Shown in pieces: positions 15,001-18,000 of a stretch of DNA of 48,597 nt. The DNA lies in IMG/VR virus record IMGVR_UViG_2879742664_000003; one strand, 5' to 3'. The position numbers are program-made. The DNA is from a virus (taxonomy: Duplodnaviria; Heunggongvirae; Uroviricota; Caudoviricetes). How positions within the stretch are numbered: the first letter of the stretch is position 1; each line of letters begins with the position of its first letter.

Positions 15001-18000
15001 ATGATTACCTGAAGTGGCTGGACCAGTGTCTGGCGCAGTTCTGGCGGGTGCTGAAACCTGCCGGAAGTCTTTACCTGTTCTGTGGTCATCGCCTGGCATC
15101 TGATATCGAAATCATGATGCGTGAACGCTTCAGTGTGCTGAACCATATTATCTGGGCGAAGCCGTCCGGACGCTGGAACGGATGCAACAAGGAAAGCCTG
15201 CGGGCGTATTTCCCCGCCACAGAGCGCATTCTGTTCGCGGAACATTATCAGGGGCCGTATCGTCCGAAAGATGCCGGGTATGCGGCGAAGGGCAGTGCAC
15301 TGAAACAGCATGTGATGGCCCCGCTGATTTCTTACTTTCGTGATGCGCGCGCGGCCCTGGGGATAACGGCAAAACAGATTGCAGATGCCACAGGAAAGAA
15401 AAACATGGTGTCGCACTGGTTCAGTGCCAGTCAGTGGCAGCTACCGAACGAAAGCGATTATCTGAAATTACAGTCGCTGTTTGCCCGGGTGGCAGAAGAG
15501 AAACATCAGCGCGGTGAACTGGAAAAGCCCCACCACCAGCTGGTGGATACGTATACGTCACTGAACCGGCAGTATGTGGAGCTGCAGAGTGAATATAAGC
15601 ATCTGCGGCGGTATTTTGGTGTGACGGCGCAGGTGCCGTACACGGATGTGTGGACACATAAACCGGTGCAGTTCTATCCCGGGAAACATCCGTGCGAAAA
15701 ACCGGCAGAAATGCTGCAGCAGATAATCAGCGCAAGCAGTCGTCCGGGAGACCTGGTTGCAGATTTTTTTTATGGGCTCAGGTTCAACGGTAAAAGCTGC
15801 ACTGGCGCTCGGGCGTCGTGCGATTGGCGTTGAACTGGAGACCGGACGTTTTGAGCAGACAGTCAGGGAAGTTCAGGATTTAATCGTTTGAAACGGATGA
15901 GATTGCAGAATTAATTACGCACCATTATTATTCTGCTCCCGGCCCTTTAGCTCAGTGGTGAGAGCGAGCGACTCATAATCGCCAGGTCGCTGGTTCAAAT
16001 CCAGCAAGGGCCACCATCACATACCGCCATTAGCTCATCAGGAAAGAGCGCCAGCCTTCGAAGCTGGTTGCGCGGAGTTCGGGTCCCCGAAGGCGGTCCA
16101 TTATCTGTATCCTGCGTTGTTAGCTCAGCCGGACAGAGCAATTGCCTTCTAAGCAATCGGTCACTGGTTCGAATCCAGTACAACGCGCCACACTTATTTT
16201 CCCTGGCTCGCTTTTGCGGGCTTTTTTTTAAATGTCTCACAATTCAGGCGGTTGACTGTTGTCTGGTTTGCGGGGAGTTTGTTAAAAGAAACTGGCATGG
16301 TGAATCCCCCTGTGCGGAGGGGCAATCAGCGAGTAGGTATATGGGATAATCGCGGATTCAGGTGCTGGTACTGAATTCACCGGGAGGCACCCGGCACCAT
16401 GCAATGGCACATAGCGCCACTCTCCAGCCCCTCTCCGGAGGGGCTTTTCTGTGCCGGATACATCACAGTTTCTGGAACCTTAGGTACTACAGTATCAGTC
16501 AGGGTGCTATATTTTCAGATGTGATGAAAGCCTGTCAGCAGGCAGGGCGTATCGGAAATGACCCAGTAGAGAAAACGTTGACTCAGATACCGGTGCTGAG
16601 TTACCGGGAAACCGGCATCACATGACCGCTATCCTTCCAGGCCCATCCGCTCCGGTGGGCCTTTTTACTGCAGAAAACAGGTTCCCCGTTAAATGCTATG
16701 TTGCTCACAATTCAGTAAGTTGACAGTTGCCTGTCAGACTGGGCATTTGTTAAAAAAATTTCGCATGGTGAATCCCCCTGAGCGGAGGGGCGACTGGTGA
16801 CGGTATAATCTCTGATTATCAAAACGAGAATGACGCGGGTTTAGTGGCACCGGGCTGAACTCACCGGGAGGCACCCGGCACCATGTGCATGATGATACAG
16901 ATACGCGGCTTTAGCCCCTCTCCGGAGGGGCTTTCTTATGGACAAAAAAAGCCCGCGCTGGGAGACGCGGGCGGCAAGGAATAAACAATAAAACGTGAAG
17001 TAATATTTCAGCTGGCGAATAATACCCCATAGTAATCACTCTGCGCAACTGCGCGGTCTTTTTCGAATTGCGGGCTGTAGTCTCCCTTCTGCCATTGTCC
17101 TGTAACTTCCGGACTTCAGCCTGCTCCTTATCTGACTCACAACATTATCCCGCCCGGGAGGATTCATGGCATTTAAACACTATGACGTGGTCAGGGCGGC
17201 ATCGCCGTCAGACCTTGCGAAACAACTGACACAAAAACTGAAGGAGGGCTGGCAGCCGTTTGGTAGTCCGGTGGCCATAACCCCTTATACCCTGATGCAG
17301 GCGATTGCAGCAGAAGGTGATGTGGTCGTCAGTGGTGCAACTGAGCCGGAGTGGTACTACGTCATCGTACTGGCCGGGCAATCCAATGCCATGGCTTACG
17401 GTGAAGGGCTTCCGCTTCCGGATTCATACGATGCGCCCCATCCGCGCATTAAGCAACTGGCCCGTCGTAACACAGTGACTCCCGGTGGTGAAGTATGCGT
17501 ATTTAACGACATCATTCCTGCTGACCATTGTCTGCATGATGTTCAGGATATGAGTACGATTAACCATCCCCGGGCTGACCTGAGCAAAGGGCAGTACGGC
17601 TGTGTCGGACAGGGCTTACATATTGCCAAAAAACTGCTTCCGTATATCCCTAATAATGCGGGGATCCTGCTGGTACCATGCTGTCGTGGTGGTTCGGCAT
17701 TCACCCAGGGCACGGAGGGGACATTCAGCGAGTCCACGGGAGCCAGTCAGGATTCGGCTCGCTGGGGAGTGGGTAAGCCGTTATATCAGGATCTGCTTTT
17801 CCGCACGAAGGCAGCATTGCAGAAAAACCCGAAAAACGTTTTGCTGGCGATATGCTGGATGCAGGGGGAATTCGATATGACGAATGCCAGTTACGCCCAG
17901 CAGCCAGCAGCATTTCTTGCAATGGTACAGCAGTTCCGTGCTGACCTTGCCGGGCTGGCAGCGCAGTGTCACGGTGGAAGTCCGGCATCAGTCCCCTGGA

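Follow-up and report, generated by a model that had tools for sequence, protein, structure and literature searches.

The small RNA (sRNA) STnc100, called EcOnc27 in enterohaemorrhagic Escherichia coli (EHEC) Sakai and sRNA103 in strain EDL933, binds Hfq, and its EHEC copy downstream of the Shiga toxin (Stx) gene stx2B has been confirmed by Northern blot and Hfq-CRAC (cross-linking and analysis of cDNA). PasD1 and PasD2 of enteropathogenic E. coli (EPEC) are abundant and Hfq-dependent according to Northern blot analysis and have partners in RIL-seq (a ligation-and-sequencing method for RNA interactions); a common ancestor of PasD and STnc100 has been proposed. In Sp5 and in seven further Sakai prophages, Tree et al. 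(2014; PMC4104026) described convergent Hfq-bound sRNAs between a moron coding sequence (CDS) and a conserved open reading frame (ORF). EcOnc42 lies 3' of the toxin in the Stx1 phage, and an EPEC RIL-seq candidate, E2348C_1409.E2348C_1408.IGR, whose targets have a GGCAAGG motif in common, has been listed as a homologue of EcOnc08/21/42. Related sRNA loci were argued by Zhu et al. to derive from Stx phages. Here we compare these systems with a locus in the virus record IMGVR_UViG_2879742664_000003, the whole 48,597-nt stretch of which was analysed and is called the window; all coordinates refer to it.

The segment 16229-17137 is very likely a cluster of four sRNA genes in a lambdoid (Qin/Dic-like) E. 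coli prophage, where it occupies the moron slot. This slot is bounded by the segment carrying Q/PR', a DNA methylase gene and tRNA genes on one side and by the segment carrying the nanS-p esterase gene and the lysis genes on the other. Three head-to-tail units on the + strand would be paralogues of the STnc100/EcOnc27/PasD family, and a fourth gene, converging on them from the minus strand, would encode an EcOnc42/21/08-type sRNA. The components of the cluster are as follows.

16229..16456, + strand: sRNA unit 1 (STnc100 type), with an upstream TCACAATTCAG motif, an extended -10 element TGtTAAAAG at 16280-16288, a predicted transcript of about 155 nt (16295-16449) and a terminator stem at 16426-16445
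16457..16703, + strand: candidate sRNA unit 2 (middle unit), with an extended -10 element TGcTATATT at 16505-16513, a predicted transcript of about 149 nt (16519-16667) and a terminator stem at 16639-16662 followed by T5
16704..16943, + strand: sRNA unit 3 (STnc100/EcOnc27 type), with the TCACAATTCAG motif at 16705, an extended -10 element TGtTAAAAA at 16748-16756, a predicted transcript of about 176 nt (16763-16938) and a terminator stem at 16913-16932
16944..17137, minus strand: candidate sRNA of the EcOnc42/21/08 type, with a terminator at 16972-16951 followed by T7
17172-17144, minus strand: promoter-like -35/-10 elements of the minus-strand sRNA, found by promoter scan and overlapping the nanS-p start

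The initial annotation of the window had reported imperfect direct repeats at 16236-16449 and 16704-16936. These repeats are real and are about 70% identical over their full length, with an 88-nt block (16236-16323 versus 16704-16791) at 80% identity, a 31-nt block (16371-16401 versus 16855-16885) at 97% identity, and the same palindrome, AGCCCCTCTCCGGAGGGGCTTT, at 16426 and 16913. An Rfam scan of the window at gathering thresholds (47 bits for STnc100, RF02076) matched both of them over model positions 1-206: unit 1 at 16266-16456 (136.3 bits, E 5e-30) and unit 3 at 16734-16943 (165.4 bits, E 2e-37). The two full-length matches, far over the gathering score, led us to conclude that both repeats belong to a curated sRNA family of enterobacterial prophages, bearing out the earlier suggestion that they may be phage small RNA genes. 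Unit 1 scores 195 bits on our own covariance model (R1), and the STnc_100 primers published for quantitative reverse-transcription PCR on outer membrane vesicles (PMC12370729) match it exactly at 16296-16388, with an amplicon of 93 bp. A scan of a genome collection with the 15-base pattern GCATGGTGAATCCYCC returned matches nearly all of which were chance occurrences in unrelated phyla; a locus in Superficieibacter was a true family match (57.6 bits).

The three stem-loops per repeat proposed in the initial annotation did not hold up as the fold of the units. In the consensus predicted by RNAalifold from 11 units, including PasD1, PasD2 and the middle unit, a long-range closing helix, GCAUGGUG...CACCAUGC, surrounds three internal hairpins and is followed by a variable single-stranded stretch and the terminator. 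Compensatory changes were found at 12 of the 32 pairs, three of them in the closing helix of the middle unit. A covariance model built on this alignment was run over 100 IMG/VR loci fetched with a family-specific pattern. Among the 81 distinct family members obtained, standard pairs fill 95% of the pair cells, and double-sided changes occur at 28 of the 32 pairs; none of 500 shuffles reached these values, and slid registers gave at most 51%. Conservation is lowest, and length variation greatest, in the internal region after hairpin 1 and in the stretch before the terminator. The latter stretch is where the PasD seed is located.

Alignment of the upstream sequences on the first base (G) of the closing helix revealed a conserved TTtgTtAAAA, which places the TG at -15/-14 and the hexamer at -12 to -7, the canonical distance for an extended -10 promoter. 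The 5' end of PasD2 estimated from RNA-seq (741157) falls on the same closing-helix G. Each + strand unit would be an autonomous gene with an extended -10 sigma-70 promoter (TGnTAAAAn or TGcTATATT, from -15 to -7), and its transcript, predicted to be about 150-176 nt long, would start at the first base of the closing helix and end in a Rho-independent terminator with a U tail. By eye, each of the three units also shows a TCACA upstream, at about -59 to -55 (16226-16241, 16452-16467 and 16694-16709). In unit 3 it forms part of TGCTA-N6-TCACA, which resembles a CRP site centred near -61.5; we make no claim of a CRP site from this visual resemblance.

The oppositely oriented hairpin noted earlier at 16951-16972 was confirmed and corresponds to the terminator of the minus-strand sRNA. 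The window at 16855-17300 is 90.6% identical to the locus of the EPEC candidate E2348C_1409.E2348C_1408.IGR (NC_011601, 1444797-1444978, minus strand). The window copy retains CCUUGCC (16982-16976), the candidate seed, which is complementary to GGCAAGG. The terminators of unit 3 and of the minus-strand sRNA face each other, 19 nt apart, directly upstream of nanS-p, and this arrangement makes the pair a convergent sRNA dyad like those described by Tree et al. For AsxR and AgvB (Rfam RF02702 and RF02703), nothing matched at E<=1 in 15850-19500 or at gathering score anywhere in the window, and Esr41 had no Rfam match in the region.

The spacer between the two repeats had been described as holding a third terminator. 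The terminator is present (16639), and the spacer itself is more than that, namely a third, diverged STnc100-like unit spanning 16491-16673. A permissive Rfam scan matched it to STnc100 at 16495-16668 (30.1 bits, E 6e-4, model positions 1-206), and it scores 118.7 bits on R1. Of 5,426 complete E. coli genomes, 673 (12%) carry the middle unit, as two alleles at least 99% and 85.5% identical to that of the window, and five phage records contain it, none of which bears the name of an Stx phage. In the type strain ATCC 11775/DSM 30083, the middle unit at least is found at 100% identity. The allele with about 85% identity also scores 30 bits on STnc100. Between the two alleles, the -10 motif is kept, hairpin 1 is kept through a compensatory C-G to U-A change, and the terminator stem is rebuilt across a 4-nt indel; the 3' part, about 130 nt ahead of this indel, contains a single difference. 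The 85% allele occurs in the same unit-middle-unit array in prophages with other flanks (one tRNA and DUF3927 upstream; IraM/DUF1737/holin downstream). A literature search with fragments of the middle-unit sequence found nothing. We consider that the middle unit is probably a functional, diverged STnc100 paralogue.

Several points weigh against reading the segment as a cluster of sRNA genes. The middle unit lies under the STnc100 gathering threshold (30.1 versus 47 bits), and its score on R1 is partly circular because the unit was in the R1 seed alignment. The alignment used for covariation was fitted to the model, and the loci were retrieved by an exact-match pattern, GCATGGTGAATCC...CGGGAGGC, so that the conservation of these two segments is inflated. 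The folding energies of the single sequences are unexceptional (z from -1.1 to -2.0), and the structural support therefore comes from covariation and not from energy. The -35 elements are weak (TTGTCT/TTGCCT with an 18-bp spacer), the transcript ends given above are predictions, and the reported effects of STnc100/EcOnc27, on fimZ and espA, come from overexpression only.

From what is published on the homologues and from lambda biology, a mode of action can be proposed for the cluster. In a lysogen, the units would probably be transcribed independently; Hfq would stabilise the RNAs, which would act by base pairing in trans. The internal variable region, together with the one before the terminator, may give each paralogue a separate set of targets. 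After induction, Q-modified RNA polymerase starting from PR' would read through all of the unit terminators to reach nanS-p and the lysis genes. Since the cluster lies inside the late operon, such read-through must occur if these genes are to be expressed, and the same terminators would then insulate the lysis genes in the lysogen.

The neighbouring genes bear on the comparison with Stx phages. According to Pfam, the gene order is RusA, Q antiterminator, DNA methylase, tRNAs, an esterase with DUF1737, SASA and DUF6645 domains, P21-type holin, DUF1327, lysozyme and Rz. Q sets the context of the locus, with PR' and the late operon downstream of it. The features flanking the cluster are listed below.

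13445..14266, + strand: Q late-gene antiterminator (Pfam PF03589 Antiterm, E 5e-51)
14349-14364, + strand: tR'-like terminator, CCCGCCGCCTGGCGGG followed by T6, starting 83 nt past the Q stop
14841..15891, + strand: N6/N4 DNA methyltransferase gene with a frameshift near its 3' end (Pfam PF01555, E 7e-32)
15941-16190, + strand: three tRNA genes, Met(CAT), Arg(TCG) and Arg(TCT), from ARAGORN, Rfam tRNA and the NCBI Prokaryotic Genome Annotation Pipeline (PGAP) annotation of an identical locus
16205..16229, + strand: intrinsic terminator after the tRNA cluster, GGCTCGCTTTTGCGGGCT followed by a T run (terminator scan)
17166..19019, + strand: NanS-p-like sialate O-acetylesterase (Pfam DUF1737, SASA and DUF6645), the conserved ORF downstream of the sRNA cluster

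The tRNA with the CAT anticodon is annotated as tRNA-Ile/ileZ in related records, and PGAP names the esterase of the identical locus 'SASA family carbohydrate esterase'. Two terminator-like hairpins lie 34-100 nt past the Q stop (14300-14370), where PR'/tR' and a StxS-like short RNA would be expected. The methyltransferase gene has a T8 run at 15765-15772, compared with T7 in the intact gene of E. coli 14EC047, and this 1-nt insertion shifts the frame of the last 40 or so codons (ORF 14841-15833 plus 15757-15891); a genuine mutation and a sequencing error in the homopolymer are both conceivable. Downstream of the esterase, the interval from the nanS-p stop to the holin gene contains a + strand terminator-like hairpin, GCCATCAGTACTTAACTGGTGGC followed by T6 (19100-19140). 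This is the position of PasA/PasC in EPEC, and no similarity to the EPEC PasA intergenic region was found there.

Other parts of the window identify the type of prophage. Further Rfam matches at gathering score were obtained for the sok antitoxin RNA (hokD locus, 11245-11420), DicF (4594-4645) and IS009 (46338-46536). Together with dicB, ydfC and rem of the identical locus in 14EC047, these matches indicate that the window is a Qin/Dic-type lambdoid prophage. A structured element with distant likeness to STnc100 (4603-4426, minus strand) fills the spacer from DicF (4645-4594) to dicB (ATG at about 4419). It scores 32.1 bits on our own model and 39.8 bits on Rfam STnc100 (E 3.7e-7), under the 47-bit threshold; the closing helix GUGAUGUGGUG...CACCGCAUCAC and a hairpin, CCUGGAGGCACCAGG, are present, the terminator segment being missing on our own model. 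A similar weak match was seen at another IMG/VR locus (L219, 4220-4399). The element hints at reuse of the scaffold in other prophage transcripts.

The backbone had been described as Stx-phage-like, and alignment with the Stx2a phage Stx2_95 showed homologous flanks on both sides of the slot. On the left, 15800-16228 is 90.7% identical to Stx2_95, from the methylase through the tRNAs to the post-tRNA terminator, where the homology ends. On the right, 16705-17257 is 89.7% identical, from 46 nt past the stx2B stop into yjhS/nanS-p. These breakpoints indicate that the 1.34-kb stx2 cassette is replaced in the window by 476 bp comprising unit 1 and the middle unit. Unit 3 is collinear, at 89.7% identity, with the Stx2_95 sRNA that starts 46 nt after stx2B, and its counterpart is also found downstream of stx2B and stx1B in toxin phages (PMC4104026, PMC12711010). 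Judged by this collinearity, unit 3 and the minus-strand sRNA belong to the shared backbone and are not cargo of the slot. The proposal that both repeats sit in the toxin slot therefore stands for the first repeat, which, with the middle unit, takes the place of stx2AB, and fails for the second, which lies outside it. The reported absence of stx was upheld in all frames: the best E-value in a tblastn search of Stx2A and Stx2B against the whole window was 0.59, and blastn of the stx2 cassette against the window gave nothing significant.

The 1.3-kb region is found at a coverage of at least 80% in 341 of the 5,426 complete E. coli genomes. Each of the 25 matches listed shows 100% identity from end to end, and the strains concerned are of clinical, animal and environmental origin. 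The region also matched 326 phage records, whose most frequent organism names are Stx2a-converting (124) and Escherichia (107). When the units were counted in 100 sampled viral (IMG/VR) loci, setting aside all model matches below 35 bits, one unit was found in about 89 loci, two in 2, three in 9 and four in 1; in the three-unit arrays the middle type is always central. Five matches below 30 bits on our own model were dropped from these counts, and the four of them that were inspected were all tRNA-Arg genes. The largest array in the sample (UViG_2861053794_000003, 2265-3380) is a tandem array of four diverged STnc100-like units scoring 66-117 bits on our own model.

Other arrangements are found in the slot. 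In phage phi296 the tRNAs are followed directly by a single mosaic unit, and in an Stx1c phage two units in tandem lie downstream of stx1B. The number of units changes by recombination, independently of the presence of the toxin. In prophage PP6 of E. coli E2348/69 (L006, 484-2288), an STnc100 unit is broken by ISEc13 (IS4-like), with an apparent 8-bp target duplication corresponding to 16310-16317 of the window. The minus-strand sRNA downstream of this split unit is the one detected by RIL-seq in EPEC.

Other explanations of the segment were weighed. It could be mainly a stack of terminators that silences nanS-p and the lysis genes in the lysogen and is overridden by Q, the short RNAs being by-products like 6S/StxS at tR'. 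The region is indeed rich in such signals: 14 terminator-like sites were found in 14200-17300, compared with 2.8 +/- 1.6 in shuffles. They include 16205, 16426, 16639 and 16913 on the + strand and 16972-16951 on the minus strand. Seven + strand sites lie between Q and nanS-p, where about 3 are expected on both strands together, and this interval is inside the Q-dependent late operon. StxS, moreover, is itself a terminated late transcript, a by-product turned sRNA. A bare terminator, however, needs neither structure nor promoter, so that the features of the units count against this explanation: about 130 nt of conserved, covarying structure lies upstream of each terminator, and every unit possesses a conserved extended -10 element, spaced canonically from the start of its RNA. 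In addition, the homologues are discrete Hfq-bound RNAs. Termination and sRNA roles are compatible with each other, and the stacking of Q-dependent terminators that the initial annotation had considered is at best a side effect, since each terminator closes a unit with its own promoter. We regard it as unlikely that termination is the main role of the segment.

It also seems improbable that one or more of the units, the middle unit above all, arose as duplicates through unequal recombination of prophages, are now decaying and no longer give a functional RNA. Units do recombine freely, as the mosaic unit of phi296 illustrates, the EPEC PP6 unit has been split by ISEc13, single units prevail at the sampled loci, and the middle unit falls under the Rfam threshold. 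Against decay, the two middle alleles, at 85% identity, retain the -10 motif, the terminator stem and, by a double compensatory change, hairpin 1, with only one difference in the 3' part of about 130 nt, and the unit is kept in 12% of complete E. coli genomes.

There is a small chance that the locus is what the initial annotation called a toxin-free precursor or remnant, that is, an Stx phage that has lost stxAB or one awaiting capture of the toxin. The flanks are about 90% identical to those of an Stx2a phage, the stx2AB cassette maps exactly between 16228 and 16705, and the derivation put forward by Zhu et al. for related sRNA loci points in the same direction. No stx-derived protein or DNA similarity is left, however, and the interval in place of the cassette consists of two complete, well-formed sRNA units and not of deletion debris. 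The three-unit cassette also occurs in backbones with other flanks, and tandem units are found alongside stx1 in the Stx1c phage. Nothing indicates a decayed toxin locus.

A coding role for the repeats is very improbable. Open frames exist, namely an 87-aa ORF at 16362-16625 and a 55-aa CDS annotated in phage PhiR5_2, and some phage records have hypothetical proteins annotated here. The annotated start codon is missing in the window, the N-terminal third is unrelated between the alleles, the five differences found where these can be aligned are all non-synonymous, the frame crosses an sRNA terminator, and PGAP gives only a pseudogene fragment at the identical locus. Finally, the idea that the repeats are repetitive extragenic palindromic (REP) or bacterial interspersed mosaic element (BIME)-type chromosomal elements, raised by their GC-rich palindromes followed by T runs, can be dismissed, because the units are about 230 nt long versus about 35 nt for REP units, which are scattered between genes of the core genome, match a curated sRNA family, and at all inspected loci lie in prophage or phage late regions beside Q, tRNA, esterase or holin genes.

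The reading as a cluster of sRNA genes thus places the locus in a kind of feature that is already described and is represented in Rfam, the triple array and the middle paralogue being a minor undescribed detail. A bolder proposal is that the three units form a mobile 'sRNA array' cassette, with a conserved scaffold and three variable (seed) segments, that serves as an alternative cargo to stx, the middle unit being an undescribed sub-family and a separately expressed regulator; this we put forward tentatively, as somewhat doubtful. The locus adds little. It shows that a toxin-free lambdoid prophage retains the stx-flanking sRNA genes and that extra paralogues can take the place of the toxin, and it fits the published view that the moron slot from Q to lysis stores Hfq-dependent regulators, in pathogenic as well as non-pathogenic E. 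coli. PGAP annotation leaves such regions blank or fills them with spurious pseudogenes, and the Rfam gathering threshold misses the middle paralogue. If the three units have distinct targets, the array would be a compact case in which tandem duplication on a mobile element has diversified sRNAs.

Units 1 and 3 of the window share the fold of STnc100/EcOnc27/sRNA103 and, like it, lie immediately upstream of nanS-p. The window differs in having three tandem units versus one and no toxin gene upstream, and the internal variable region and the pre-terminator stretch differ among its units and from the Stx2-phage copy. PasD1 and PasD2 of EPEC E2348/69 (EcOnc13 homologues) share with the window units the 5' end GCAUGGUGAAUCC, hairpins 1 and 2, the GGGAGGC hairpin, the closing helix and the prophage position between Q and an esterase or holin gene, and score 38-41 bits on the STnc100 model, close to the middle unit. 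The likeness covers the 5' two-thirds, whereas the 3' part of PasD, with the seed UGUGAG and the terminator GGCUGCGCA..GCGCAGCC followed by U8, is found in none of the window units. The PR' moron-site dyads of Tree et al. have the location, convergent layout and back-to-back terminators seen in the window. In the window, however, the + strand partner is triplicated, and the minus-strand partner is not an AsxR/AgvB-type anti-sRNA of 51-60 nt with a conserved 3' domain of about 42 nt but the longer EcOnc42/21/08 type. With EcOnc42/21/08 and the EPEC candidate, this partner has the CCUUGCC element and the terminator in common, with no evident difference at the sequence level. Finally, the Q-methylase-tRNA(x3) and sRNA-nanS-p-lysis segments of the window are about 90% identical to those of Stx2_95, and where the Stx1 and Stx2 toxin loci have the stx promoter, stxA and stxB, the window has unit 1 and the middle unit instead.

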